DNA from: Deltaproteobacteria bacterium | Lineage (GTDB): Bacteria > Desulfobacterota > DSM-4660 > Desulfatiglandales > HGW-15 | Reading direction: 5' to 3' | Assembly (NCBI GenBank): GCA_016930835.1 | Contig: JAFGGA010000136.1 | Coordinates: 8,960 to 72,959, forward strand | Length of the DNA: 64,000 nt | In this document: piece by piece, positions 211 to 46,918 of the stretch | Position numbering within the stretch: position 1 is the first letter of the stretch | Layout: the number at the start of each line of letters is the position of its first letter | Made by a program: the position numbers and the translations under genes | Notes under the pieces: model-generated | Told to the model about the DNA's origin: nothing | Seen by the model: the letters and a program-made list of their open reading frames with translations, nothing else | Database searches by the model: none

Positions 211-813
211 ATGAAATTGAGTCAAAAACAAAAGGAATTTTTGGGCTATATCTCCCGTTATGTGGATGAATGGGGGCATTCCCCCAGTTTTGACGAAATA
301 TGCGCCCATTTTGGTTTTAACTCCTATAACACGGTCACCACCTATCTCAAGATCCTGGAACGAAAAGGTTATGTTCGGCTTCCCGGTAAAAACCGAAAGC
401 GGGCCATCGAGGTCATCAGCCCTGTGGAAACACGGCGGTTTGAGTTCCCTCTCCTGGGAAAGGTGGCCGGCGGAAAACCCATTGAGGCCATCGAAGACGT
501 GAACGTGATCGAGGTCCCGCCCTCCATGATCGGAAAAGGGGACCACTTTGTCCTGCAGGTCAAGGGATCATCCATGGAGGATGACGGGATCCTGGACGGT
601 GATTTTGTGGTGATCCGCAGGCAGGCCACCGCGGAAAACGGCGAGACCGTCGTGGCCCTCCTCAACAACGAGGCCACGGTCAAGCGATATTACAAGACCA
701 ATGGCCGCGTGGAACTCCGCCCCGCACACAAGGGTATGGAATCCATATGGGTTGATGAAGGTGATCTCCACATTCAAGGTAAGGTGGTGGGGGTGATGAG
801 GCATTATAGATAA
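211..813 (+). CDS. lexA: LexA repressor (S24 peptidase)
   Basis: 200-aa ORF. N-terminal winged helix (YNTVTTYLKILERKGYV), cleavage region VAGG, catalytic Ser context GSSMEDDGI, Lys in ATVKRYY. GGAGG SD upstream of the ATG. Confidence 0.95.
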   Translation: MKLSQKQKEFLGYISRYVDEWGHSPSFDEICAHFGFNSYNTVTTYLKILERKGYVRLPGKNRKRAIEVISPVETRRFEFPLLGKVAGGKPIEAIEDVNVIEVPPSMIGKGDHFVLQVKGSSMEDDGILDGDFVVIRRQATAENGETVVALLNNEATVKRYYKTNGRVELRPAHKGMESIWVDEGDLHIQGKVVGVMRHYR

Positions 814-820
814 GGCGCAG

Positions 821-857
821 GGTATAAGGTGTACGGTTTACGGTATAAGGTTTAAGG
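821..857 (+). repeat. Tandem heptamer array, left arm (TATAAGG TGTACGG TTTACGG TATAAGG TTTAAGG)
   Basis: Five consecutive 7-mers of pattern TNTAMGG read directly at 823-857. Complementary to the array at 1242-1269. The last unit forms the AAGGAGG SD of the next ORF. Confidence 0.85.
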
Positions 858-867
858 AGGAAGAATA

Positions 868-1224
868 ATGGGGGATTTTCAAAAGCTTAAGGTTTGGAAG
901 CGTGCGAAGGACCTAGCTGTTTCAATTTATAAAGCGACCGGGAAAGGTTCATTCCTTAAAGATTATAACCTCAAAGATCAGATTCGGCGGGCTGCCATTT
1001 CGATCCCAAGCAATATAGCAGAGAGGGATGAATTGGGAACCAACAGACAATCCATAAAGTTTTTTCGTATTGCAAAAGGCTCTGCTGCCGAACTATTCAA
1101 TCAAACTATTATAGCCTTTGAAATTGGTTATTTTACACAACCTCAATTTGAGCAAGTTAAAGAGGAATGCCAGGCGATTTCAAGCATGTTGCCAAGGCTA
1201 ATTCATGTAAGAGCAAAATATTAA
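868..1224 (+). CDS. Four-helix-bundle protein (23S rRNA intervening-sequence protein family)
   Basis: 118-aa ORF with family-typical motifs: FQKLKVWKRAKDLAVSIY, IRRAAISIPSNIAE, AKGSAAEL. Strong SD. Confidence 0.85.
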   Translation: MGDFQKLKVWKRAKDLAVSIYKATGKGSFLKDYNLKDQIRRAAISIPSNIAERDELGTNRQSIKFFRIAKGSAAELFNQTIIAFEIGYFTQPQFEQVKEECQAISSMLPRLIHVRAKY

Positions 1225-1240
1225 GCATCGCTCAATACTC

Positions 1241-1271
1241 ACCGTATACCTTATACCGTACACCGTGAACC
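1241..1271 (+). repeat. Tandem heptamer array, right arm (CCGTATA CCTTATA CCGTACA CCGTGAA), inverse of 821-857
   Basis: Four consecutive 7-mers that are reverse complements of the TNTAMGG units, starting about 17 nt after the ORF stop. Confidence 0.85.
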
Positions 1272-1346
1272 TTTCCCCTCACGCCTTTTATCCCTCAGCA
1301 AAGAGGTTTATTTATAAATTTTATACGGAAAAAGGAAGATAAAAAC

Positions 1347-2507
1347 TTGCGTAATATCATTCATCTCCACATCCCTTCCTTCCAAATCACCTTGGAACGG
1401 GTGAATCGTCTTGAGCTTCGGGATCGGCCCGTGGTGGTGGCGCCGGCCCATTCAGAACGGGCCCTGATCCTTTCCGTATCCCGCGAGGCCCGAAGGGAAG
1501 GAATCTTCAAGGGCATGGCCCTGAACAAGGCCCTGCGGTTCTGTCCGGATCTGACGGTTTTACCCCCTAATCCCGGGCTTATGGAAAAGGGAACCCAGGC
1601 CCTTACCGAGGCCGTGGCTCATTATACCCCCCTGTGGGAACCGGCCCAGCCTGGTCACATGTACATGGATGTCACGGGAACAGAGCGTCTGTGGGGGCGG
1701 GCCAAAGACGCGGCCCGACGTATCGGCAAGGAGATGAAGGATCGCCTCTCTCTTCCAGGCGCCGTCGGCGTCGCCGGCAACAAGATGGTTTCCGGCATCG
1801 CATCGCGGCTCATGGCTACGGAAGGGGTGCTGGATGTGGATCATGGCCGGGAGTCCGCGTTTATGGCTCCGCTCAAGGTAGATTTTCTGCCTGGCATCGG
1901 CCATGTGAGAAAGAGGGTCCTCCTGGAGGAACTCCATATCACCCTGGTTAGGGAAATCGCTGTTTTGGATATGCAGCATTTGAAGATGGTTTTTGGCATG
2001 CAGGCCCTTATGATCCATCAACGGGCATGGGGAATCGACCCCACACCGGTCCACCCCCCTGAAAGAAAACCCATGGTGAGCGAGAGCATCACCCTTGCCC
2101 GTGATGAGAACGATGACTATAAACTCCTGGCAACCCTGTATGCCATGGTGGAAAAATGTGGGCAACGGCTTCGAAGCAGATCCTTGGTTCCCCGGCATGC
2201 CGGCCTGTTGATTCGATATTCCGATCAGATGGAGGTGGCGCGGCAAGTCAAATTGAACGGCGCGACCTTTTACGATATGGATCTCTATGCCCCTTTGGAG
2301 ATGATTTTTTACAAGGCTTACCAGCGCCGAGTCGGTATCCGTTTTATGCGGGTGTGGTTTCGGGATCTTATAGTCCCTTCGCCTCAACTCTCACTTTTTT
2401 CGAGGACTCCTGCATATGACGGCAAAAAAGCCCCGGTGACAAATGCCTTGGATCGCATCCGGGAGCGGTATGGAGAAAAAGCTATAAAATATGGAAGAGC
2501 GGTATAA
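1347..2507 (+). CDS. imuB: ImuB-like inactive Y-family DNA polymerase
   Basis: 386-aa ORF with overall DinB/Y-family layout. The catalytic DMDAFFASVE-type motif is replaced by HLHIPSFQITLE, as in ImuB. TTG start per ORF track with AAGGAAG upstream. Lies immediately upstream of dnaE2. Confidence 0.8.
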   Translation: MRNIIHLHIPSFQITLERVNRLELRDRPVVVAPAHSERALILSVSREARREGIFKGMALNKALRFCPDLTVLPPNPGLMEKGTQALTEAVAHYTPLWEPAQPGHMYMDVTGTERLWGRAKDAARRIGKEMKDRLSLPGAVGVAGNKMVSGIASRLMATEGVLDVDHGRESAFMAPLKVDFLPGIGHVRKRVLLEELHITLVREIAVLDMQHLKMVFGMQALMIHQRAWGIDPTPVHPPERKPMVSESITLARDENDDYKLLATLYAMVEKCGQRLRSRSLVPRHAGLLIRYSDQMEVARQVKLNGATFYDMDLYAPLEMIFYKAYQRRVGIRFMRVWFRDLIVPSPQLSLFSRTPAYDGKKAPVTNALDRIRERYGEKAIKYGRAV

Positions 2508-2605
2508 GGTTTACGGTCTACGGTTTACGGATGGAAACTATACATCTTGCCTTAACCCGTATACCGTACACCGTATATCATACACCTTATACCGTACAAC
2601 ATAAG
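2501..2605 (+). repeat. Inverted heptamer-array hairpin without cargo (4 units TNTACGG/TATAAGG, 19-nt spacer, 8 units CCKTAYA)
   Basis: TATAAGG TTTACGG TCTACGG TTTACGG at 2503-2530. CCTTAAC CCGTATA CCGTACA CCGTATA TCATACA CCTTATA CCGTACA ACATAAG at 2550-2605. The left arm overlaps the imuB stop codon (2505-2507). Confidence 0.85.
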
Positions 2606-2617
2606 CCGAGTCTAGCT

Positions 2618-5600
2618 ATGATCAATTTTATCCACCTCCATGTCCATTCTCATTTTTCCAAGGGCTGGGGCATAGGCTCCATTGAGGAACTCTGTCAATG
2701 CGCCCGGGCCTATCACATGGACCGGTTCGCCCTGACCGACACCAACGGCCTTTACGGACTGGTCTTCTTTGTTCAGAGCGCCATGGAGATGGGCATCAAG
2801 CCTATTGTGGGCAGTGAGATCGTATGCGACAATCACCGGGCCGTCCTGCTGGTGCGCGGCCATGAAGGGTATGCCAATCTCTGCCGGATTATATCCGACC
2901 GGCATTGCCATGAAGATTTCGACCTGATCCAATCGCTCAGACAGCGTCGCAATGGGCTCATCATCTTTTCCGACGACTTCCGTCTGCTCAAGGTCCTAAA
3001 GAAAGATGCCTTGGAAGATCTTTATGTGGAGATGTCGCCGGGTTACAGCATGCATTCCTGCTATGCATTCTCACGCGAGAGCGGCATCCCGCCCTTAGCC
3101 ACCAACCGGGTCTATCTGGTTCACAAAGATCAATGTCCGCTCCATCGAATACTCCGGGCCGTGGCCCTCAACAGCAAGCTGTCGCGTTTGACACCGAATG
3201 ACACGTGTAGGGAACATGGTTTTTTTAATTCTTCGCAGGCCATGATCGACCAGTTTCCCCATGCACCCCAAGCCATCCACAATACGGCTAAGGTGGCGGA
3301 CCAATGCATGATAAACTGGGATTTTAGCGGCGTCATCTTTCCGAGCTTTCAGGAGATGTCGGACAGGGAGGCCTTTGACCGTCTATATCAGGCCACGCTG
3401 GAAGGATGCAAGTGGCGGTACGGAGAGATCACCCCGGTTGTCCGGGAGCGCATAGATCATGAGATGCGGATCATCCGGGAAAAGAATTTTGCCCATTATT
3501 TTCTGGTGGTGGCCGATATCACGAAAAAGGCACAACGATCATGCGGAAGGGGGAGTGCCGCGGCGTCCATTGTTTCCTATGCCCTGGGCATCACCCACGT
3601 GGACCCCATCAAACATCATCTTTTTTTTGAACGGTTTTTAAATCCCGGACGGGTCGATCCTCCGGATATTGATGTGGACTTTGCATGGGATGAAAGAGAA
3701 CAGGTGATCGACTATGTTTTTGCACGGCATGGAAACCAACGGGCCGCCATGGTGGCCAACCATAACACCTATGGGGCCCGGTCGGCCGTTCGTGAGGTGG
3801 CCAAGGTTTTTGGCCTGACGGACGCGGAGATCGGTCGGGTGACCGACCGTATCGGATTCGGCTGGCGGCTAAAGAAGACCTGGAAAGAGCTGAAAACCCA
3901 TCCCAAGATGCGTGACGTGGAATTCAAAGAGCCATGGGATGATATCCTGGCCGCGGCCGTGCAACTGGAGGATCACCTGAATCATCTGTCCGTCCATTGC
4001 GGGGGCCTGGTGGTGGTGCCGGATGAGATACGCCGTTACTGCCCCGTGGAGATCTCCGCAAACGGGGCCCAGGTCCTTCAGTGGGAAAAGGATTCCGTGG
4101 AAGAGGCTGGCCTTGTCAAGATTGATATCCTGGGTAACCGCAGTTTGGCGGTCATTCGTGATGCATTGGCTTTGGTGGAAAAGAATTATGGTATTCGGAT
4201 CGATTACGCCACCTGGGACCCTATCCAGGACCCCGACACCGTGGAGATCTTTTATCAGGGTGATACATTCGGGGTGTTTTATTTTGAGAGCCCGGCCACC
4301 CGTCAGGTCCTGACCAAGGTAGCCAGCGGCCTGACCTTGGATACATACCGCACTCTGGATCATTTTCATCTCAACGTGGTGGTTACATCCATTATCCGTC
4401 CGGCGTCCAACCAGAGCATACGAACCTGGGTATCCAGACTCCACGGTCAGGCATGGGATGCCCCTCATCCCCTTTTACGCCCCGTGTTGGAAGAGACCCT
4501 GGGTGTCATGGTATTCCAGGAGCAATTGAGCCAGGCCGCCATCTGCATGGCTGGCTTTGACGCAGCCGAGGCCGATATGTTGCGCAAGGTGGTGAGCAAG
4601 AAGCACAGGGAGAAAAAGCTCAAGGATTTTCACACCCGGTTTATCAAGGGGGCCTCTGAGAGGGGGGTAACCACGGAGGTGATCGAAGATGTCTGGCAGA
4701 TGATGATGGGTTTTGACGGTTATAGTTTCTGCAAGCCCCATTCAGCCAGCTATACCCTGGTGGCCTACAAGTCAGCCTTTCTCCGGGCCCATTACCCGGC
4801 GGAATTTATGGCCTCGGTCATCTCAAACGGCGGCGGTTACTACTCCACCTTCGGTTATATATCCGAGGCAAAACGCATGGGTCTCCGTGTCCTTCCGCCG
4901 GACATCAATCTCAGTGAAGTCAAGTATATGGGTAAAGATCGCGACATCCGTGTGGGACTTATGCAGTTGAAAGAGCTTTCTCACGAGGCCAAGGAGGTCA
5001 TTGTGTTTGACCGTTCGCGAAACGGCCCATTCCTGTCCCTGGATGATTTTTTAAGGCGTATCGGACACCACATGCATTTTCAAGACGTCAGAATTTTAAT
5101 CAAGGCGGGCTGCTTTGATAGTATTAATCAGGGTATTGATCGGCCCGGCCTGGTGTGGAAGGCCCTGCGATTCTTTGACACCCATGCCCAAACCCTTCCC
5201 CCTCGCAGGTTATGTCGTAACGAAAAGCAGGTCATTCTCCAACAAAAGAATCAGGATCTTCGACCGAACGAGCAATGTCATGCATTGCAAGATCCGGAAT
5301 CCAGGCATGCAAAACCATTCCAAAAATATCTATTCAATTCTCATAAAGATTCGCCACCCATGGAGCCCCTTCCTTTTTTGTCGAACAACTTTCCATCCAT
5401 TTCTCCCTCATCCGGAGGGAAGAGCTCGTCACTTCTCCCCTCCCCCGGCGGGAGGAACGCGCCATTTCTCCCCTCCCCTAGCGGGAGGGGTTGGGAGAGG
5501 GGGTTGAATGAAAAACCCCCTTATCCCAAACACATCATGCTTAAGCACGAATCCGAGACCCTGGGTTTCATCCTTTCGATGCACCCTCTGGAGCTTTATC

Positions 5601-5956
5601 AAGATATCCTAAAAGAGCTGAACCTCATACACGCCAAAGATCTTGATAAGCATGTGGGTAAATATATCACCATCATCGGCTGGCTCGTGACCGGCAAGAC
5701 CGTGCTTACCAAGGCCGGTGACCCCATGAAGTTCATCTCTTTTGAAGACACCACCGGAATCTATGAGGCCGTGTTCTTCCCTAAGGTCTATAATCGATAT
5801 TGCCACATGCTTAATGCGTCACGACCTTATTTGATCAAGGGAAGGGTCGAGAAGGATTTTGGGTCTGTGAATGTGAATGTAAATTGGGTGGAGTTTTTGG
5901 ATCGACATAAAAAAAATAAAGATTATCGAAATCTGAAAATAACGGCGAAGCCTTGA
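2618..5956 (+). CDS. dnaE2: Error-prone DNA polymerase III alpha-like subunit DnaE2
   Basis: PHP motif INFIHLHVHSHFS at the N-terminus, GRGSAAASIVSYALGITHVDP, PPDIDVDF, C-terminal OB-fold region. The track ORF starts at 2531, but those 29 codons translate the heptamer array, so I prefer the ATG at 2618. Confidence 0.9.
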   Translation: MINFIHLHVHSHFSKGWGIGSIEELCQCARAYHMDRFALTDTNGLYGLVFFVQSAMEMGIKPIVGSEIVCDNHRAVLLVRGHEGYANLCRIISDRHCHEDFDLIQSLRQRRNGLIIFSDDFRLLKVLKKDALEDLYVEMSPGYSMHSCYAFSRESGIPPLATNRVYLVHKDQCPLHRILRAVALNSKLSRLTPNDTCREHGFFNSSQAMIDQFPHAPQAIHNTAKVADQCMINWDFSGVIFPSFQEMSDREAFDRLYQATLEGCKWRYGEITPVVRERIDHEMRIIREKNFAHYFLVVADITKKAQRSCGRGSAAASIVSYALGITHVDPIKHHLFFERFLNPGRVDPPDIDVDFAWDEREQVIDYVFARHGNQRAAMVANHNTYGARSAVREVAKVFGLTDAEIGRVTDRIGFGWRLKKTWKELKTHPKMRDVEFKEPWDDILAAAVQLEDHLNHLSVHCGGLVVVPDEIRRYCPVEISANGAQVLQWEKDSVEEAGLVKIDILGNRSLAVIRDALALVEKNYGIRIDYATWDPIQDPDTVEIFYQGDTFGVFYFESPATRQVLTKVASGLTLDTYRTLDHFHLNVVVTSIIRPASNQSIRTWVSRLHGQAWDAPHPLLRPVLEETLGVMVFQEQLSQAAICMAGFDAAEADMLRKVVSKKHREKKLKDFHTRFIKGASERGVTTEVIEDVWQMMMGFDGYSFCKPHSASYTLVAYKSAFLRAHYPAEFMASVISNGGGYYSTFGYISEAKRMGLRVLPPDINLSEVKYMGKDRDIRVGLMQLKELSHEAKEVIVFDRSRNGPFLSLDDFLRRIGHHMHFQDVRILIKAGCFDSINQGIDRPGLVWKALRFFDTHAQTLPPRRLCRNEKQVILQQKNQDLRPNEQCHALQDPESRHAKPFQKYLFNSHKDSPPMEPLPFLSNNFPSISPSSGGKSSSLLPSPGGRNAPFLPSPSGRGWERGLNEKPPYPKHIMLKHESETLGFILSMHPLELYQDILKELNLIHAKDLDKHVGKYITIIGWLVTGKTVLTKAGDPMKFISFEDTTGIYEAVFFPKVYNRYCHMLNASRPYLIKGRVEKDFGSVNVNVNWVEFLDRHKKNKDYRNLKITAKP
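5401..5503 (+). repeat. Three tandem ~33-bp GC-rich hairpin units embedded in frame in dnaE2
   Basis: TTCTCCCTCATCCGGAGGGAAG (5401-), TTCTCCCCTCCCCCGGCGGGAGG (5433-), TTCTCCCCTCCCCTAGCGGGAGGGG (5466-). Period about 33 nt = 11 codons. Translated as ISPSSGGKSSS / LLPSPGGRNAPF / LPSPSGRGWERG. Confidence 0.8.
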
Positions 5957-12513: not shown

Positions 12514-12570
12514 GATTAAAGTTTTGCTCATCATATACCGATGACATAGTTGAAAAATAAAATTTTATTA

Positions 12571-12652
12571 TGCAAAAGGGCAAACCATCCGAAAGGTTGG
12601 GACGCAAAGCCTCCGGTCTAAGTCCTAAATAGGATAGGGTAGCGGGGTTGCA
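12571..12652 (+). promoter_or_regulatory. c-di-GMP-I (GEMM-I) riboswitch aptamer
   Basis: GGGCAAACCAUCCGAAAGGUUGGGACGCAAAGCCUCCGG...GUAGCGGGGUUGCA is near-identical in the conserved positions to the V. cholerae Vc2 aptamer (GGGCAAACC..GAAAG..GGGACGCAAAGCCUCCGG..UAGCGGGGUU). P1 is UGCAA/UUGCA. Confidence 0.85.
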
Positions 12653-12677
12653 ATGCTTAAGCGTATGCTGCATTTAG

Positions 12678-12712: not shown

Positions 12713-12730
12713 GTGGAAAGGAAGGCAAAC

Positions 12731-13021
12731 ATGAATATTGATTTTCTAGGAGGAATGCCACTACCACAGGCGATCGACATCAAGACCGAAAAGAATTCCG
12801 AACGTGAAGTCACACGATCTATAGAAGAATCCGGCAAAGGAAATGATCTAGGATTGAATGTTGAAAAGAAGACTGTTGTGGGAAAATCGGGTGTAAAAAA
12901 TAGAGCAAAAAAAGATAAGATAAATCATGATATTTACGACGTAAGGGGTGATTTATCACCAAAAAAGATCTTAGACGATGATACAGACGATCATCAAAAA
13001 CCGGTTCATGTTATCGTATAG
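12731..13021 (+). CDS. Hypothetical charged small protein (riboswitch-controlled)
   Basis: The ORF track starts at 12713 (GTG); the ATG at 12731 (MNIDFLGG...) has AGGAAGG upstream. No family recognised. Confidence 0.55.
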   Translation: MNIDFLGGMPLPQAIDIKTEKNSEREVTRSIEESGKGNDLGLNVEKKTVVGKSGVKNRAKKDKINHDIYDVRGDLSPKKILDDDTDDHQKPVHVIV

Positions 13022-15029: not shown

Positions 15030-15130
15030 GTTAGCATGATCCATGGCGTCCAAAAAAGATTGAATTCGGTTTTTGGGCGGCGAACTTGAGAAGAGATCCC
15101 CGTACCCCAGGAAACCTTTTTTCGACAAAA
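15030..15130 (-). repeat. Dispersed repeat family, copy 1 (reverse orientation)
   Basis: The reverse complement reads TTGTCGAAAAAAGGTTTCCTGGGGTACGGGGATCTCTTCTCAAGTTCGCCGCCCAAAAACCGAAT..TTGGACGCC, alignable to the copies at 28951, 37617, 42053 and 44870. Confidence 0.85.
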
Positions 15131-15224
15131 ATGATTCTCATCCTCGAACGATTTGATCGACCCAAAATGCCCTATCTTATTAAAATCATGATTGCTTAAT
15201 ATCAAAATCTATGTTAGGCCGTAT

Positions 15225-27257: not shown

Positions 27258-27797
27258 ATGAATTATTACGAATTACTGAACATCGACCCAAAGGCAGGGC
27301 CGGATGAAATCAAGCGGGCCTATCGGGAAAAACTTAAGGAGTGGCATCCTGATAAAAATCCCCACCGCAAAGAAAAGGCTGAAGAGATCACCAAGACGAT
27401 GAATATCGCATACGGCATCCTCTCCGATCCTGAGCAAAGGCAAAATTACGACAGGATACTTCGCTTTTCAAAGGGCAGAAGTTTTGATGAGTATGTGGAC
27501 GACGGGTCTTTTTCAAAAAAAATGAAAAAGGCATCTGGAGCATTAAAAGGACTTTGGCAGGATGTGCAGGATCTTTATTCTCTCTTTAAAGACGCCGTAA
27601 GAGGCCGGTATAAGCTTCACCCTGTCAACCTGGGAATCATCGGTGGCGGATTGATCTATTTTATCATACCAATGGACATTATCCCTGATATCTTCCCTCT
27701 GATAGGTTACCTAGATGATATGGCTGTATTCACAACGATCATCAATGCATTTGGGGAGGAGTTGGTAAAATACAGGAACTGGAAAGGTTCGGCTTAA
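27258..27797 (+). CDS. DnaJ (J-domain) protein with C-terminal DUF1232/YkvA membrane domain
   Basis: NYYELLNIDPKAGPDEIKRAYREKLKEWHPDKN J-domain. IPDIFPLIGYLDDMAVF is a DUF1232 signature. Confidence 0.85.
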   Translation: MNYYELLNIDPKAGPDEIKRAYREKLKEWHPDKNPHRKEKAEEITKTMNIAYGILSDPEQRQNYDRILRFSKGRSFDEYVDDGSFSKKMKKASGALKGLWQDVQDLYSLFKDAVRGRYKLHPVNLGIIGGGLIYFIIPMDIIPDIFPLIGYLDDMAVFTTIINAFGEELVKYRNWKGSA

Positions 27798-28074
27798 TTT
27801 CCAATAAATCCCTTTAAATAATAGAACCGAAAAATTGGATGATCCCGATATAAGATTCGCCGAGGCAGTTCTTGGGCAAGCTGTACGAAAGACGCATGAA
27901 CGGGCCAAACGCTTCGGCCATGGCATCATTATCTATTAAAACGGCAGATTGTGGAGAAAACGCAGAATAAGGATACCTGAAAAACAGGAGGGTTACGGGT
28001 CATTTGCAACCCTTTTGATCCACGGGCCATTTTTACCATCGACCATTCCAACCATGGTATGGAGAAATTCTTAA

Positions 28075-28347: not shown

Positions 28348-28941
28348 ATGGAAAGCAAGATCGTTTATTTTGAAGATATTGGGTCTCAGAATACCGAGAT
28401 CACATTTCAAGCGGTCAAGGAAAGGTTGAATGACTCAGGTATTCAAAGGATCGTGATGGCGTCCACAACCGGCGCCACGGCAAGGCTGGCCATGGATTTT
28501 TTTAAGGACAGCGGAACCCGATTAATCGTGATACCACATCAGTATGACTTTCGCAAAGATGTCAATCCGTTCCCATGGGAGTTGGTCAAAGAGATGAGAG
28601 ACGCGGGTCATGAGGTCCACTTCGGGACCATGTTGTTCCACACGGATCAACTCTACGAGTCGAATATTCCGACATTAATGGCCAATCTTTTGCGCTGCTT
28701 TTGCCAAGGCGTAAAGGTCTGTTTTGAGATCGTGATGATGGCGACGGATGCGGGTCTCCTTTCAAAAGGAGAAAAAATCATCGCCATTGCCGGAACCGGC
28801 CGCGGGGCGGACACCGCGTTGGTCATGCAGGCGTCCTCTTCCCGGAACATGAAGAGGCTTCGTGTGAATGAGATCATCTGCAAGCCGCTCTATCCCCTGA
28901 ATATTGATGAGCTTTTATCAAAAGCACCGCCGGAAAAATAG
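28348..28941 (+). CDS. Pyruvate-kinase C-terminal (alpha/beta) domain-like protein
   Basis: 197 aa. Pattern IVMASTTGATA...VIPH...KVCFEIVMMATDAGL...IIAIAGTGRGADTALVM. AAGGAG SD. Confidence 0.65.
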   Translation: MESKIVYFEDIGSQNTEITFQAVKERLNDSGIQRIVMASTTGATARLAMDFFKDSGTRLIVIPHQYDFRKDVNPFPWELVKEMRDAGHEVHFGTMLFHTDQLYESNIPTLMANLLRCFCQGVKVCFEIVMMATDAGLLSKGEKIIAIAGTGRGADTALVMQASSSRNMKRLRVNEIICKPLYPLNIDELLSKAPPEK

Positions 28942-28950
28942 ATGGGCATC

Positions 28951-29070
28951 ATCCTTAAATGAGCTTATGGATGCGGGCTTGTCAAAAAACGGTTTTTGGG
29001 GGCACGAGGATCTCCTTTCAAGTTCACCACCCAAAAGCCAAATGCCATTTATTCTGGACGCGAATATGAT
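28951..29070 (+). repeat. Dispersed repeat family, copy 2
   Basis: ATCCTTAAA..GCTTGTCAAAAAACGGTTTTTGGGGGCACGAGGATCTCCTTTCAAGTTCACCACCCAAAAGCCAAAT..CTGGACGCG. Confidence 0.85.
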
Positions 29071-29127
29071 GAATGATCAAGATTCGGGGGATTGGAATTC
29101 TCCTTTTTCATGTTTGTGGGGGGGTTG

Positions 29128-29580
29128 ATGCAAAAAGTATTATACGTGGATATGGACAATGTCCTGGTGGATTTTTCAAGCGGTGTGGATCGTCTGGATC
29201 AGGAGACAAGGCAGGCATATGAAGGCCGCCTGGATGAGGCCCCCGGGATCTTTTATTTCATGGACCCTATTGAAGGGGCTGTCAAAGCCTATGAAAGTTT
29301 GTGCACTAGGTTTGATACCTATATCCTGTCCACGGCTCCCTGGGAAAACCCTTCCGCCTGGATGGACAAGCTCCTCTGGGTGAAAAAACACCTGGGTGAT
29401 CTTGCATACAAGCGGCTGATACTGACCCATCACAAGGACCTGAACCTGGGTGATTACCTGATAGACGACCGCGCGAAGAATGGAGCAGACCATTTTACAG
29501 GGGAGCTGATCCTTTTTGGTTCCGATCGATTTCCGGACTGGCCTGCGGTTCTTGATTATCTGATGGGCGAAAAGGAATAA
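29128..29580 (+). CDS. 5'(3')-deoxyribonucleotidase (HAD, NT5C family)
   Basis: VLYVDMDNVLVDF catalytic DxD motif, STAPWENP, YLIDDRAKNG. Track ORF from 29092; I prefer the ATG at 29128. Confidence 0.8.
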   Translation: MQKVLYVDMDNVLVDFSSGVDRLDQETRQAYEGRLDEAPGIFYFMDPIEGAVKAYESLCTRFDTYILSTAPWENPSAWMDKLLWVKKHLGDLAYKRLILTHHKDLNLGDYLIDDRAKNGADHFTGELILFGSDRFPDWPAVLDYLMGEKE

Positions 29581-36603: not shown

Positions 36604-36877
36604 GGTAAACGCTTCCTTTTTAAATAATTTTAATGAGGTGCGAGTATAAAAAAAGAGGGACTATGTGTCAACCTTGAAATAAAAAAATGGCCGTATAACA
36701 AAATCAATCGATAAAAACATTAGAAACGGGAACAGCGATAAGCTTGCAATATCAAGATGTTATCAAATGGCAGCCATTATGTTTAGCGGCCAAATAAAAA
36801 AATGCCTTGACAAAATAGATTAAAAATTTAATTAAAAATGTAATTTAAAAAACAATTTTTAATTTTGATACGGGGAT

Positions 36878-37579
36878 ATGGCAAAAAACAAAACCGACAA
36901 TGGGGCAAACCAACATATCGATCATAGCCAGAAGGCCTACACAGGCCTTCGTCGTATGCTGTATTATAAGGATCTTGTCCCCGGACAAAAGATCGCCTAT
37001 CGGGAACTGGCTGAGCGCCTAAACATGAGCTTTACACCTATTATCCAGGCACTTAAGTGGCTGGAAATGGAGGGCTTTGTTAGTCATGAGCCCAATCGGG
37101 GTTATTACATGACCCCTTTTAGCCTTGACGAGATTGAGGAGATCTATCAGTTGCGTCAACTTCTGGAACCTTCACTCCTGCCCGAAACCATAGCAAATCT
37201 GGATAAAGCCAAGATCAAAATATTAAAAAAATCCTTGGATGCCCATTTGTCGGCGGGGCGAGAGTCATTTCTAAAAGAAAGACTCTTTAAAAACACGGAA
37301 TTTCATCTAACTCTGGCATCGCTGTCCGGAAGGAAGACTCAACTGCGTGTTCTTCAAACGATTTTTGATCTTCTGCTCTTGAAATACGGCGGCAACTACC
37401 TGCCCATCCAATCCATGGAAACATCGGATCAAGAACATCAGATGATCTTTGATTGCATGGTCTCAGGAGACGTCAAAGGGGCCAAGGCGGCGCTCTTAAA
37501 ACATATCAGCAATGTAAAAAAACAGGTACTGAAGAATTTAAAGCGTATACTGGAAGAGAGGGAAGTACCGATTTATTAA
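36878..37579 (+). CDS. GntR-family transcriptional regulator (FadR/FCD type)
   Basis: 233 aa. N-terminal wHTH (GQKIAYRELAERLNMSFTPIIQALKWLEMEGFV) and C-terminal all-helical FCD-like domain. Confidence 0.88.
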   Translation: MAKNKTDNGANQHIDHSQKAYTGLRRMLYYKDLVPGQKIAYRELAERLNMSFTPIIQALKWLEMEGFVSHEPNRGYYMTPFSLDEIEEIYQLRQLLEPSLLPETIANLDKAKIKILKKSLDAHLSAGRESFLKERLFKNTEFHLTLASLSGRKTQLRVLQTIFDLLLLKYGGNYLPIQSMETSDQEHQMIFDCMVSGDVKGAKAALLKHISNVKKQVLKNLKRILEEREVPIY

Positions 37580-37616: not shown

Positions 37617-37680
37617 TAATGGTGGATTGCTTGGTCCATGGGGATCTCTTGTCAAAGGCGAATCCCAGCCTACTTTTTCC
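37617..37680 (+). repeat. Dispersed repeat family, degenerate copy 5
   Basis: TTGGTCCATGGGGATCTCTTGTCAAAGGCGAATCCCAGCC aligns to the core TGGGGGCACGGGGATCTCTTTTCCAGTTCACCACCCAAAAGCC. Confidence 0.55.
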
Positions 37681-41546: not shown

Positions 41547-42008
41547 TTACTTCGGGCCGAATAATTCAAAATCATCCTGCCCTTTTTTATCTTCCTTATT
41601 GGGCTTCGGAGCAGGGGCAGGTTTTTCCGTTGATTTCCGAAGTTTTATAGAAGGCCGTGGTGATGGTTTTGTTTTTTGATTGTAGGAGGACATAAAGGAT
41701 TCAGGAAGGGGTTTTGTATTTTTCAGCAGATGGCCGGGTATATAAATAATATTCCCCTTCAGGAGGTTATCTTGATTGATTTGGGGATTGGCATCCACCA
41801 GGCAAGACCAATTCTCAGCATCATGGGTATACCATTCGGCTATGATCTTTAAGGTCTCACCTGGCCATTTGACGATATGTTCGAAATGATTCTCCTGAGG
41901 AACAGCCGGTTTCCAGACATTGTGTTTTCCGCTTACGAATGGACATCCGGCATTGAACAGGATCATGGACCCCATAATGAAAACAGCAAAAATCATTTTT
42001 TTGATCAT
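41547..42008 (-). CDS. Secreted LysM-like domain protein
   Basis: 153 aa. Signal peptide, LysM-like HIVKWPGETLKIIAEWYT...NLLKGNIIYIPG, Pro/Lys-rich tail. Confidence 0.7.
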   Translation of the reverse strand: MIKKMIFAVFIMGSMILFNAGCPFVSGKHNVWKPAVPQENHFEHIVKWPGETLKIIAEWYTHDAENWSCLVDANPQINQDNLLKGNIIYIPGHLLKNTKPLPESFMSSYNQKTKPSPRPSIKLRKSTEKPAPAPKPNKEDKKGQDDFELFGPK

Positions 42009-42052
42009 AATGCCTATCCTTTGGGATCCCCTATTCCTTTTTGTTCCCGGAA

Positions 42053-42150
42053 CCAGGCCTGTTTAAAAACGGTTTTTGGGGGCACGGGGATCTCTTTTCC
42101 AGTTCACCACCCAAAAGCCGAATCTCATCTGTTTTGAACACCGATGTCCC
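42053..42150 (+). repeat. Dispersed repeat family, copy 3
   Basis: GGCCTGTTTAAAAACGGTTTTTGGGGGCACGGGGATCTCTTTTCCAGTTCACCACCCAAAAGCCGAATCTCATCTGTTTTGAACACCGATG. The 3' part overlaps the last codons of the kinase gene on the opposite strand. Confidence 0.85.
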
Positions 42151-44026
42151 TGAACAATCGTTTCGCATGTTCGTTGTCGGGATTAATGCTAATCGCTCGT
42201 TCCAGATGATTTATGCACGCTTGGTGTTTGCCTAGCTTCCTCTGTACCAGTGCCAGGTTATAAAGGGCTTCATCAAGGAATTGGGGGGACAGTTCAACCG
42301 CACGACCGAACATGGCCTCGGCATGGATGTATTCTTTTTTGCTGGCATAGATGTAACCGAGATTAAAATAAGCGCCGGGCATCTGGGGATCCAATTCGAG
42401 GGCTGTTTGGTAAGAAGCAATGGCGCTCGTGTAATCCTTTTGTCGTGTATAAATACGACCCAGGTGAAAATGGCCTTGAGGGTTTCCGGGGACGAGCTTG
42501 ACGGCCTTGAGCAATAAAGCCTTGGCCTTTTCAGGATCGGAACCGAACAGTGTTACCGCCTGCCCGACCAAGGCATTGGAATACAGGACATAGACCCTAT
42601 CCTCAACGGATGGTCCTGTCATTAGTATATCCTCGAATATTACGGCCGCCTCGATATATCTTTCTTCTTTTAACAACCGGATACCCTCCTTCATTGCAGG
42701 TGAATCATGAACGGGGGATGGATCTTGTATCGGTTTAAAAGTACTATAGGATTCATTCACACCGGATATTTCATCATGATTCTTTTGAACGGTTGGATCG
42801 GTATCTTGCTTATGAGAAAGTTTTTTCTGCCAAAACAGAAAAGCGGCGTTTTGCTGGAGCTTGTCAACCAGGATGGATGGGTCATTGGAGTAGATGAGGG
42901 TCGCACTCGTTCCTCCTATTAAAAGAACCAGCACAAGGGCTGCATACGGAAACAGGCGCTTTTTTTTCTTCAACGGTTCGATCGTTTCCGTCAAAAGCAA
43001 GGTCTTTTCCAATCGGGTCGATCTTGTTTCGTCCTGTCCTGTTACAGCCGATAAATCAAAATCTTCGGCTTCTTCCATGACGTGAACGTCGGATTCGGCT
43101 TCCTTTTTGAATAGCTCATTCATGTATTGTGAAAGCCCTCGAAATGATGAGCTGAATGAGAGTTGCTGTATGCATACTTCCAGATCCGCGAGCATCTCTT
43201 CTGCGGATTGATATCGCTGTTCACGGTCTTTTTTAAGGGCTTTTTCTAGAATCCGGTAAACCTGCATGGGAAGATCACTCTTTACAACCTCCGGCGGGGT
43301 ATAATCGGCTTCACGAACCTTAGCAAACACTTGAAAGGCATCTCCTTCGAACATCTTCTTTCGGGTTGCCATTTCATATAAAAGAATACCCATGGCAAAA
43401 AGATCCGAACGGTGATCAATGACCTTTCCCTGGGCCTGTTCGGGTGACATGTAGGCGACTTTCCCTTTGATGGAACCTTCCTGGGTGGTTGTATCCTGAA
43501 TGGCGGCCTTTGCTATGCCGAAATCGATGATCTTCACCTGTCCGTCATACGTCACAAAGACATTCTGGGGACCAATATCCCTGTGAATAATATTCAGCGG
43601 TCTGCCTTGAAAATCCTTGAGTTTATGGGCATACGCCAGCCCGGCACAGACCTGCGTGGCGATATAAAGGACCATCTCAAGACTCAGGGGAGCCTTTTTT
43701 TCTTTGGCTCTTTTGATAACCAGTTTGAGGTCTTTTCCATAGAGGTACTCCATGGCGATGTAATAGGCGCCATCCACACTCCCGAAATCATAAATCTGGA
43801 CAATGTTTTGATGTTGCAAATAGGCGGCAAGTTTGGCTTCCTCGATAAATGATTTGATCAGGTTTTCTTCTTCGGCAAGGTGAGGGAGGATCATCTTGAT
43901 GGCAATCAGCTTCTCAAAGCCTTCCGCCCCAATCAGCTTGGCACGATAAAGCTCGGCCATACCGCCATGGGCAAGACGTCCTAAAAGGAGATATTTTCCA
44001 AATCGTCTTGGTTCAAATTCGGACAT
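42125..44026 (-). CDS. Ser/Thr protein kinase with TM helix and C-terminal TPR domain
   Basis: 633 aa. GGMAELY, AIKMILPHLAE, HRDIGPQN, DFGIAK, SPEQ. TM around aa 355-375. About 5 TPR motifs. Confidence 0.92.
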   Translation of the reverse strand: MSEFEPRRFGKYLLLGRLAHGGMAELYRAKLIGAEGFEKLIAIKMILPHLAEEENLIKSFIEEAKLAAYLQHQNIVQIYDFGSVDGAYYIAMEYLYGKDLKLVIKRAKEKKAPLSLEMVLYIATQVCAGLAYAHKLKDFQGRPLNIIHRDIGPQNVFVTYDGQVKIIDFGIAKAAIQDTTTQEGSIKGKVAYMSPEQAQGKVIDHRSDLFAMGILLYEMATRKKMFEGDAFQVFAKVREADYTPPEVVKSDLPMQVYRILEKALKKDREQRYQSAEEMLADLEVCIQQLSFSSSFRGLSQYMNELFKKEAESDVHVMEEAEDFDLSAVTGQDETRSTRLEKTLLLTETIEPLKKKKRLFPYAALVLVLLIGGTSATLIYSNDPSILVDKLQQNAAFLFWQKKLSHKQDTDPTVQKNHDEISGVNESYSTFKPIQDPSPVHDSPAMKEGIRLLKEERYIEAAVIFEDILMTGPSVEDRVYVLYSNALVGQAVTLFGSDPEKAKALLLKAVKLVPGNPQGHFHLGRIYTRQKDYTSAIASYQTALELDPQMPGAYFNLGYIYASKKEYIHAEAMFGRAVELSPQFLDEALYNLALVQRKLGKHQACINHLERAISINPDNEHAKRLFRDIGVQNR

Positions 44027-44652: not shown

Positions 44653-44859
44653 TCAATTGAATGGCCTTAACGTCAGAACAACGCCCTTCCCTTCAATATT
44701 CCGGAAAGAAGCGTGCAAAATATATCGAAGGTGTGTTCGGCAAACGACACCTTTTCCATGTCTAACCATTCGCCATACATCCAGGAAAAGATCTTTAAAA
44801 TACTGGAAGAGTATGACCTTGCCGATGTCATGTAGAAGCCCCCCAATCAAAAAACTCAT
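44653..44859 (-). pseudogene. HDOD/HD-domain fragment
   Basis: The 68-aa ORF begins SFLIGGLLHDIGKVILFQYF (HD-type signature) then degenerates. There is no N- or C-terminal remainder. Abuts repeat copy 4. Confidence 0.45.
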
Positions 44860-44869
44860 CCGGTAAATG

Positions 44870-44950
44870 ATCCTTAAAAGTCACGCTTGTCTAAAAACGG
44901 TTTTCGGGGGTATGGGGATCTCTTTTCAAGTTCACACCCAAAAGCCTTTG
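44870..44950 (+). repeat. Dispersed repeat family, copy 4
   Basis: ATCCTTAAAAGTCACGCTTGTCTAAAAACGGTTTTCGGGGGTATGGGGATCTCTTTTCAAGTTCACACCCAAAAGCC, with a 1-nt deletion relative to copies 2 and 3. Confidence 0.85.
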
Positions 44951-45228
44951 CGGTTATTTGAAAAAGGGCAAAAAGACTCATGGCACGATGATACGTACAC
45001 AACAAATAGGCCAGGATTTTTTAGAACCTAGTGGTATCTTTTAGCGGCTATTTTTGTTCATTGATTTGATTTGTTTTTCATCATGTTCTGCCTGCATTGC
45101 GGGTTCGGATTGTTTAAGGGTTTCCCGGAAATGCCACAATGTTGACGACCAATACGTAACCACGTATGGAAAGGCAACCTGACCGGTATGAATAAACTAT
45201 CTGGGTATTTGGATATCCCTGTTTATCC

Positions 45229-45843: not shown

Positions 45844-46150
45844 ATGAAGATGATCTACTACCCGGGGTGGACACTCAAGACAAAGTTTCGTAATCTTGGT
45901 GATACGGCTATTGCCGCCATGGCCAGGTTGGGTGTTGATTTGGAAGAGCTCTCCCGCTGGAATTGCTAAGGCATTGGGCGCGGATGCGGTTTCATTATCA
46001 ACCGCTGATCTTTGCTGCGGGTCCTATCAGACACTTGGGAATCTTGTCCACCCGGCTTATCAACAGGAGGAACGGCGTACCCTTAGGGTCGGGCCTAACA
46101 AAGGTGAGTTTTTTCAGAAAGTAGTGGCCGCGTTATTGGAATCACATTCC
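45844..46150 (+). pseudogene. HdrB-like (CCG-domain) gene, truncated and internally deleted
   Basis: MKMIYYPGWTLKTKFRNLGDTAIAAMARLGVDLEELSRWNC-stop matches an HdrB N-terminus ending at the WNCCG motif. Another frame continues KALGADAVSLSTADLCCGSYQ (second CCG motif). The roughly 200 aa in between are missing. Confidence 0.7.
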
Positions 46151-46918
46151 ATGAGACGGCCTGAAAAAGTGGATCTGTCAAACCCTGAATATGATACCGA
46201 TGTCCTCATTATCGGCGGCGGCGCAGGGGCTTCCGCGGCCTTAGCGGCATCGGATGGCGGCGCCAATGTGATCATAACCACAAAATTTCGACATGGCGAT
46301 GCCAATACCATTATGGCGCCACCATGGACGGTGTTAACCTGGCTTTCAGGACCGGGGTAGGGGAATAAATATCTATATTCCACTTAATATCATCCCACTG
46401 GCGCGGTTTATCCGGAGCAAAATGTCGGGCTCCTTATTACCGGGAAGGTTCAAGGTCTGGGTGCCCATGTATTGAATGTCGATGGTGAACAGTTTTGTTT
46501 TCCATTGGAGCTCAGGGATGTTGAATCCGAATTAGTCAAGAACCATTACTGGTCTATCCGACCCTTTATGATCAAAACGGCGGCATCAACATTGATGCCG
46601 AAACTCGAACAAACATTTCGGGACTATACGGTGCCGGGAAGTGGTGGGTGGTATCCACGCCGCGAGAATCGCATGATGGGTAACAGCCTTCAAGATATTA
46701 TTACCTTCGGGCACCACGCGGGCAAAAATGCGGCCGAGTATATGAATAAGGGTGTGGACCTGAAAAAGCCGACCTTCGGTCATGTAATCCGTTTTGAGAG
46801 TGAACTCAAGGAGTCCGGAGTTGAAAATCCTGTCACCGCCCCGATTCTTCTTCCCGATTATTCAACTGAAGAAGTGATTTCCAAGCGATGGATGGAGGGG
46901 CTCATGGAAAATGAATAA
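46151..46918 (+). pseudogene. FAD flavoprotein (SdhA/FrdA/TfrA-like), multiply frameshifted and deleted
   Basis: Fragments in three frames: DVLIIGGGAGASAALAASDGGANVIITTK (FAD fold), GAHVLNVDGEQFCFPLELRDVES, GGINIDAETRTNISGLYGAGEVVGGIHAA, MGNSLQDIITFGHHAGKNAAEY. Total length is far below the ~550-600 aa of intact homologs. Confidence 0.75.

Follow-up and report, generated by a model that had tools for sequence, protein, structure and literature searches.

The locus discussed here raises a simple question: what is the short sequence that returns several times, mostly between unrelated genes, in the window, by which we mean the whole analysed stretch of 64,000 nucleotides? The original prediction offered two answers, either a MITE or small-RNA family derived from a coding sequence, or the remnants of a repeatedly inserted mini-ORF. 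According to our analysis the mobile-element part of this proposal stands, as an empty insertion site, 9-bp duplications and inverted repeats all point to it, while its small-RNA, coding and mini-ORF parts do not. We consider the repeat, with a probability of about 0.85, to be a family of miniature non-coding and non-autonomous DNA transposons of the MITE type, because it unites the features of one: it is small and non-coding, its ends are inverted, its duplication has a constant 9 bp, an empty site exists, and there are many copies. It appears to be an ordinary kind of element which belongs to an undescribed family.

That the repeat is real, and that its copies lie where they had been placed originally, within ~10-20 nt, is confirmed by several searches (Table 1). 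Allowing up to 3 mismatches, we counted 3 matches to the pattern of the 24-nt core in the window against 0.00 expected from 100 shuffles, and a repeat search of the window returned a 91-nt direct family (copies B, D and E), to which A and C were matched in inverted orientation. An nhmmer profile of four copies recovered A, B, D and E with E-values of 1e-29 to 1e-34 and the degenerate copy C at 37632-37665 with an E-value of 0.033, and it had no further match in the 64 kb; copy C agrees with the core at 18 of 19 positions. Our comparisons concern these four clear copies and one core remnant, all from the 64-kb window, and such a number (4 + 1 in 64 kb) represents the multiple dispersed copies by which a MITE family is recognised. 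The source is an uncultured Desulfobacterota bacterium of sulfate-reducer type: kinase, PK_C-like protein and phosphoesterase of the window are all 100% identical to proteins of an NCBI MAG ('Deltaproteobacteria bacterium', locus tags JW932_*, contig of 80.5 kb). In L032, an independent Logan assembly of this organism, copy A has exactly the same bases and is therefore not an assembly artefact. The window copies are only 71-81% identical to one another, which suggests that they are old and probably no longer moving. All of them lie between ORFs except D, which overlaps the last codons of a kinase gene. The neighbours (a phosphoesterase, MoeA, a nucleotidase, a GntR regulator with HpaB, the kinase, a ferredoxin-like protein) have no function in common, and among the window copies we found no rule of orientation relative to genes, copy D being antisense to both of its neighbours.

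Table 1. Copies of the element in the window, their target-site duplications and the displaced end of the kinase gene.
Feature	Position	Strand	Description
Copy A	15041-15133	minus	complete 93-bp element; divergent region, metallophosphoesterase / MoeA genes
Copy B	28974-29066	plus	complete 93-bp element; PK_C-like gene / NT5C nucleotidase gene
Copy B, putative target-site duplication, left	28965-28973	plus	TTATGGATG
Copy B, putative target-site duplication, right	29067-29075	plus	TGATGAATG
Copy C	~37620-37665	plus	decayed, mainly core (CATGGGGATCTCTTGTCAA); GntR-family gene / hpaB
Copy D	42054-42146	plus	complete 93-bp element; 3' end of Ser/Thr kinase-TPR gene (minus strand)
Copy D, target-site duplication, left	42045-42053	plus	TCCCGGAAC on plus, GTTCCGGGA on minus
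Copy D, target-site duplication, right	42147-42155	plus	TCCCTGAAC on plus, GTTCAGGGA on minus
Displaced former kinase end (EQKGIGDPKG, TAG 42016-42014)	42014-42044	minus	now untranslated
Copy E	44882 to ~44948	plus	left end, core and inner 3' arm; right end missing

Copy D is a demonstrable insertion. In one relative with an 81% identical kinase (L001-L003) only 5 nt separate the stop codon of the kinase gene from the ATG of the next gene, and this arrangement of stop, 5 nt and ATG is also present in the more distant L026, where the kinase is 68% identical; the empty site reads gga taa atatc atg in L001 and gga tag gaata atg in L026. Compared with these relatives the window carries 102 extra bp at the kinase end, and on the minus strand GTTCAGGGA (42155-42147) and GTTCCGGGA (42053-42045) flank this additional stretch. 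When the 93-bp element and one 9-bp repeat are excised in silico, the remaining sequence aligns to L001 without a gap through the gene end, the stop codon, the 5-nt spacer and the next start, and the 633-aa kinase (...RLFRDIGVQNR*) becomes a protein of 636 aa (...RLFREQKGIGDPKG*), which is the length of P0002 and P0003 and has the KG ending of P0002 and P0004. Since two outgroups are without the element, an insertion in the lineage of the window is the parsimonious reading, and a site that is empty in L001-L003 and L026 and filled in the window is the insertion polymorphism to be expected of a MITE.

The consequences for the gene can be followed to the base. The last 7 codons of the present kinase (DIGVQNR) and its TGA stop at 42127-42125 are supplied by the element, so that 10 original codons were lost and 7 element-encoded ones with a stop were gained. 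Behind the displaced former end the original 5-nt spacer is still in place, followed by the ATG of a 153-aa gene at 42008, and the kinase now ends 116 nt from this gene, formerly 5 nt. At the other copies the surroundings are less favourable for such a comparison: copy A is absent from the relatives L029-L031, with the surrounding DNA too diverged for a base-exact empty site, and the region of copy B is present in relatives without the element but is rearranged, so that it has no base-exact empty site either.

The duplications themselves are consistent from copy to copy. At D the left and the right one agree at 8 of 9 positions (chance of at least 8/9, 1e-4), and at B at 7 of 9 in the register of D (p = 1.3e-3 for at least 7/9). 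Among longer forms of the element from metagenomes, to which we return below, the match is perfect in L011 (GTTCGCGAC/GTTCGCGAC, 9/9) and L010 (GAGGGGATT/GAGGGGATT, 9/9), the binomial chance of a 9/9 duplication being 4e-6 in each case, and it is 7/9 in L007 (TGATCATAT/TGATCAGTT). In all five (L011, L010, D, B and L007) the duplications stand directly outside the ends and in one fixed register, as those of a MITE do. The flanks of copy A agree at 5/9 only, after a shift of 1 nt, and the duplication has decayed there; copy E has no target duplication at its flanks, because it is truncated at a deletion junction.

In its window form the element measures 93 bp and in its long-form relatives 357-395 bp, in both cases below the ~500 bp that are usual for a MITE and without coding capacity. 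It is bounded by imperfect terminal inverted repeats, 5'-CAnnC YTGTCCAAAA ... TTTTGGACAG YAATG-3', and these termini are common to the window copies and the long forms. The window form begins with 5'-CA(c/t)(g/t)C-YTGTCNAAAAA and finishes with TTTTGGAC(A/G)(G/C)-YRATG-3'. In the long forms the left end, CAnnC-YTGTCCAAAA, is identical at ~12 of 17 positions to the reverse complement of the right end, CATTR-CTGTCCAAAA; in the window copies the inverted repeats, another mark of MITEs, are present in a weaker form. An outer helix, in which 77% of cells pair, shows in folds because both ends are imperfect inverted repeats of the CAnnC-YTGTCCAAAA type. Inside it lies a hairpin of GGTTTTTGGGGG and CCACCCAAAAGCC with the conserved core GGGGYAYGGGGATCTCTTTTCMAG in its loop. 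The complementarity of GGTTTTTGGG and CCCAAAAGCC, which was noticed in the original prediction, does exist, as 83% of cells pair in the proposed hairpin against 33-60% in slid controls.

Conservation is distributed along the element in a peculiar manner. Pairwise identity is 0.86 in the core, 0.69-0.74 at the left end and 0.51-0.63 at the right end, which is the least conserved part, and the terminal 5 nt vary among the window copies (CAGGC, CGGGC, CATTT, CACGC). The ends of MITEs are normally their best-conserved part, and a better-conserved interior is unusual. It had also been suggested that the flanks on the left are shared; indeed the 9-mer ATCCTTAAA is present to the left of B and E (28951-28959 and 44870-44878) and, taken with its neighbours, matches at 11 of 12 positions between the two flanks, but it does not belong to the element and is not in register, its distance from the element end being 15 nt in B and 4 nt in E. 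It could reflect a target preference or chance.

Long-form relatives came from a relaxed core scan of JGI metagenomes, which gave 11 loci; a single metagenome (Ga0209536) accounts for most of these. The loci carry a repeat of 357-395 bp, whose first ~55 nt (left end and core) and last ~25 nt are common to the window element; the two ends and the core are all that short and long forms have in common, the 3' arm of the inner stem being absent from the long ones. Similarity between long-form copies ends at 5'-CACKC-YTGTCCAAAAAC on the left and at ...TTTTGGACAGYAATG-3' on the right. The long form is found on at least 9 contigs of metagenome Ga0209536/Ga0209427, and the Ga0209536 copies are 77-95% identical to one another and fragment the assembly. 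Relatives of the source organism are annotated as Desulfobacteraceae, Desulfatiglans or Thermodesulfobacteriota. Elsewhere the searches gave little: a strict right-half pattern had 0 matches in GTDB representative genomes and JGI metagenomes, a relaxed left-end pattern only 2 chance matches in GTDB representatives, core and right-end patterns none or chance matches only in IMG/VR, the long form no blastn match among plasmids, and ~40 kb from the closest sampled relatives (L001, L027-L031) contained no copy. Such a patchy and lineage-specific distribution is typical of mobile elements. A literature search found no relevant link between MITEs and Desulfobacter-type bacteria. As a separate observation, a palindrome of 39-41 bp forming a perfect hairpin, GCCCTTCGACAGGCTCAGGGCCCTGAGTAACATCGAAGGGC, is nested in the long form at L007 940-985 and also in L009, L012 and L015, and is absent from L010 and L011; it represents a second, smaller insertion-like repeat.

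The feature that is most difficult to fit into a common scheme is the internal core, 24 nt of GGGGYAYGGGGATCTCTTTTCMAG conserved across lineages and extended by TTCRCCACC, ~24-34 nt in all. In L013, L026 and copy C it is found alone, and inverted pairs of the 34-bp core bound segments of 219-259 bp in L006, L007, L010, L011 and L014, and inside every long form. When L008 3512-3830 is compared with L011 552-884, the segment between the inverted 34-bp cores is reversed relative to the outer arm, which could be due to recombination between the cores or to misassembly. From the paired cores of these five loci, from the solitary ones and from the inverted segment of L008 one might suggest that the mobile unit is in fact another element of ~220 bp, Tn3-derived and TIME-like or ISL3-like with GGGG... 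ends, which has the core as its inverted repeat, and that what we see in the window are its chimeras or solo ends; the core also starts with GGGG, as Tn3-family ends do. We regard this as quite improbable. Conservation between copies extends beyond the cores, by 25 nt in one direction and by ~115 nt in the other. It is the outer ends, and not the cores, that the perfect 9-bp duplications adjoin, the 5-bp flanks of the core pairs match unconvincingly (GTTTC/GTTTT, TTTTC/TTCTC, CGAAA/TTTTC), and the copies in the window, in spite of having only one core, were integrated as 93-bp units with a duplication of their own. Members of the Tn3 family and TIMEs carry 38-bp GGGG...TAAG repeats at their very ends and make 5-bp duplications. 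Here the GGGG core is internal, 25 and ~115 nt from the ends, and the duplications are of 9 bp, which does not agree with a TIME, and the core lacks the inner ...TAAG motif of the 38-bp Tn3-family repeats. For the same misfit of spacing and duplication length we no longer read the core and the A5/T5 palindrome as Tn3/TIME or as Hin-type hix sequences, and altogether none of the sigma-54, Tn3-end, ISL3-end or hix-like readings of the core fits, as far as we can judge. A promoter, for which the core was compared by eye with the sigma-54 and sigma-70 consensus, was rejected too, since key positions vary between copies and no consistent signal came from the scans. A somewhat different suggestion would be that the core is a functional module itself, a binding or recombination site for a protein of the host or of the element, which MITEs carry around Desulfobacterota genomes. 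It is compatible with the better conservation of the core than of the ends and its survival alone in decayed copies, with its presence in different contexts in at least 4 lineages, and with an inverted pair that brackets a segment seen in both orientations (L008 and L011); we would call it unlikely. If it were true, the core pair could be an invertible switch, and the conserved core is the only feature here that possibly holds something new.

The remaining alternatives have to deal with the same hairpin and the same insertions. A family of cis-regulatory RNAs or small-RNA genes, having a hairpin with a conserved loop and located in 5' leaders or intergenic regions, would be in line with the intergenic position of all the copies, with a hairpin that is real (83% of cells paired) and has its best-conserved part in the loop, and with the core standing alone upstream of genes (copy C before hpaB; L026 1318-1353 before a PD40 gene). 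Against it, no copy matches an Rfam family, whether at gathering score or with E allowed up to 10, nor do the long forms at E up to 1, and the folding energies stay within those of shuffled sequences on either strand (z from -1.4 to +0.45). The percentage of paired positions, the compensatory pairs and the covariation equal those of column-shuffled controls, a comparison of four sequences and of low power, and the 3' arm of the inner stem is missing from the long forms. Promoter and terminator scans revealed nothing common to the copies, which have unrelated neighbours (D is antisense to both of its own) and which behave as insertions with target duplications. We hold such an RNA family to be very improbable; a riboswitch or leader RNA was rejected on the same grounds (no Rfam match, no extra stability, unrelated neighbours, no covariation), and the small-RNA family which had been proposed earlier finds no compensatory changes beyond those of shuffles to lean on. 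As to remnants of a coding sequence, or a mini-ORF repeatedly inserted and possibly translated in frame like the Rickettsia palindromic elements (RPE), it is true that frame +2 is open in A, B and D, that the insertion with its duplication makes 102 bp, i.e. 34 codons, and that 7 element codons of D are now the C-terminus of a kinase. The codon-like substitution pattern noted in the original prediction disappears when all columns are counted: variable columns are distributed over the three phases as 10/15/13 (93 columns, p = 0.60), and within the originally proposed core as 4/8/4 (p = 0.34), with none of 6 copy pairs biased. Substitutions even across the phases and no compensatory changes, which the prediction itself had set against both its coding and its RNA versions, are what we observe. 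Moreover, copy E has 1-nt and 3-nt indels and stops in frame +2, no frame is open in all four copies, six translated frames from A, B and D, including both peptides named earlier, have no Pfam match even at E = 10, start or stop context is not conserved, the frame actually used in D stops after 7 codons, and the lengths of the long forms (357, 359 and 395 bp) are not all multiples of three. A reverse-strand mini-ORF (AAGGAG...GTG) was rejected as well, being not conserved between copies. A coding origin seems to us extremely unlikely, and we would say the same of an element of REP/BIME type or a palindromic IS200/IS605 derivative (PATE) moved as single-stranded DNA by a Y1 transposase (RAYT/TnpA). 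The latter would explain a short, imperfectly palindromic, intergenic and dispersed repeat with a hairpin; however, such elements insert without duplication, whereas 9-bp duplications in a fixed register accompany five independent copies here, the unit is 93 bp and not 20-40 bp, the window contains no clustered inverted pairs, and no Y1 transposase domain was found among the window ORFs scanned.

Taking the repeat as a MITE, one may ask which enzyme would have moved it. We propose that the element would be mobilised in trans by a transposase whose gene lies elsewhere in the genome and which would attach to both ends, that insertion would proceed via a 9-bp staggered cut, and that repair would leave the 9-bp direct duplication of the target. 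Both ends of the element have CA at positions 1-2 and T at position 9, which together with the 9-bp duplication corresponds to IS4-type ends, yet is too unspecific to prove membership. From these CA termini and the duplication length it may tentatively be suggested that the enzyme is an IS4-family DDE transposase, of the kind that carries the YREK motif, with ends like those of IS4Sa or IS50, or one of ISAs1. ISAs1 has CAGGG ends and a duplication of 8-10 bp, and the ends of our element fit it too. In the IS4 family, IS4Sa has the ends CA------T with direct repeats of 8-10 bp, and IS50 the ends CW------Y with direct repeats of 8-9 bp, those of IS10 being 9 bp (PMC2266710, Table 1). No transposase domain was found in the ~50 larger window ORFs scanned, and no autonomous IS with matching ends in the window, in the loci from relatives and metagenomes or in the scanned collections. 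With IS4-family elements (IS4Sa/IS50/IS10) and cassettes such as MIC231 our element shares the 5'-CA termini, the T at position 9 and the 9-bp duplication; it differs in that no transposase gene was found with it in the window or in the loci from relatives and metagenomes. The ends and the duplication are now defined, and they give a handle for finding the transposase.

The closest parallels in organisation are the bacterial MITEs such as Correia/NEMIS of Neisseria, RUP of Streptococcus pneumoniae and Nezha of cyanobacteria. Like these, the element is of ~100 bp (its long form of up to ~400 bp), non-coding, with inverted ends, hairpin potential and a fixed-length duplication; its dispersed copies are mostly intergenic, occasionally inserted into gene ends and lineage-specific, and in-trans mobilisation is presumed. 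The sequence is unrelated to them as far as checked (Rfam, plasmids and GTDB representatives without a match), the core is here better conserved than the ends, and short and long forms exist side by side. The duplication of Correia elements is TA, and in our case it is 9 bp. The RPEs are similar as palindromic repeats of ~100 bp which are able to join a protein, just as 7 residues became the new C-terminus of the kinase; but RPEs are read through in frame and mostly sit inside genes, whereas 4 of the 5 copies here are intergenic, the genic one brings a stop, and the substitution pattern is not of the coding type. REP/BIME sequences with their RAYT are short, intergenic, hairpin-forming and dispersed too, but REPs have 20-40 nt, no target duplications and clustered inverted pairs, while the elements described here have 9-bp duplications and are single.

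Copy E belongs to a place where DNA was lost. Exactly at its position 2.2 kb of L001 (357-2576) are missing from the window, namely a histidine kinase/response-regulator gene and the N-terminal half of an HDOD gene. Across E, window 44773-44869 aligns to L001 2672-2577 and window 44954-45013 to L001 356-297, and what looks like the right end of E is native sequence, whose homologue in L001 lies immediately before the histidine-kinase gene. To the left of E, at 44656-44869, tblastn and blastn against L001 detect remnants of HDOD residues 160-190 and response-regulator residues 240-274, and a second deletion relative to L001, of 1.09 kb, lies at window 44757-44772. The element is linked with the rearrangement at E, and that it also caused it we only infer.

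Gene content differs from that of relatives at other places too. Decay of genes around copy E is also seen at 45896-46918, where there are two fragments (154 and 148 aa) in place of the intact 555-aa FAD-binding oxidoreductase of L026, and the CCG and ferredoxin genes of L026 at that locus are absent from the window. Behind the PK_C-like gene L027/L028 have 2.8 kb with a 64-aa ORF, SUI1 and an ABC-F ATPase (28928-29494 of the window versus L027 5516-8322), where the window instead has copy B and the NT5C nucleotidase gene. At 27784-28073 the window misses 2.1 kb of L027, comprising a 323-aa ORF, DUF488 and a 5' part of the UDG gene of ~370 nt.

For annotation it would be logical to mask these repeats as copies of a mobile element and not to enter them as small RNAs or mini-ORFs, and to read the odd C-terminus of the kinase and the remnants at 44656-44869 as insertion and deletion scars. 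The window offers a clean and datable case in uncultured Desulfobacterota, in which a MITE rewrites the end of a signalling kinase and uncouples the kinase from its downstream gene, and a truncated copy marks a deletion junction.

Several further features of the window deserve a mention. A c-di-GMP-I riboswitch aptamer (RF01051, 81.7 bits, E = 1.5e-14) is present at 12569-12655 on the plus strand, just upstream of a 102-aa ORF (12713-13021) without a Pfam domain. At 211-5956 a LexA / ImuB-like / DnaE2 mutagenesis cassette is split by a member of the '23S rRNA intervening sequence protein' gene family (868-1224). Inverted arrays of 7-nt repeats (GGTATAA / ACCGTAT types) flank this gene at 812-867 and 1241-1287, and a further pair of 7-nt repeat arrays occupies the ImuB-like/DnaE2 junction (2500-2615); the arrangement resembles a small cassette that was inserted, or else a group of binding-site arrays. 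In the 3' part of the DnaE2-like gene, at 5397-5488, there is a 33-nt tandem repeat of 2.8 copies with 78% matches. Finally, an AT-rich 12-nt tandem repeat, ATTAAAAATGTA, stands in 2.7 copies at 36817-36858, just upstream of the GntR-family gene (36878-37579) which precedes hpaB, and may be an operator array.
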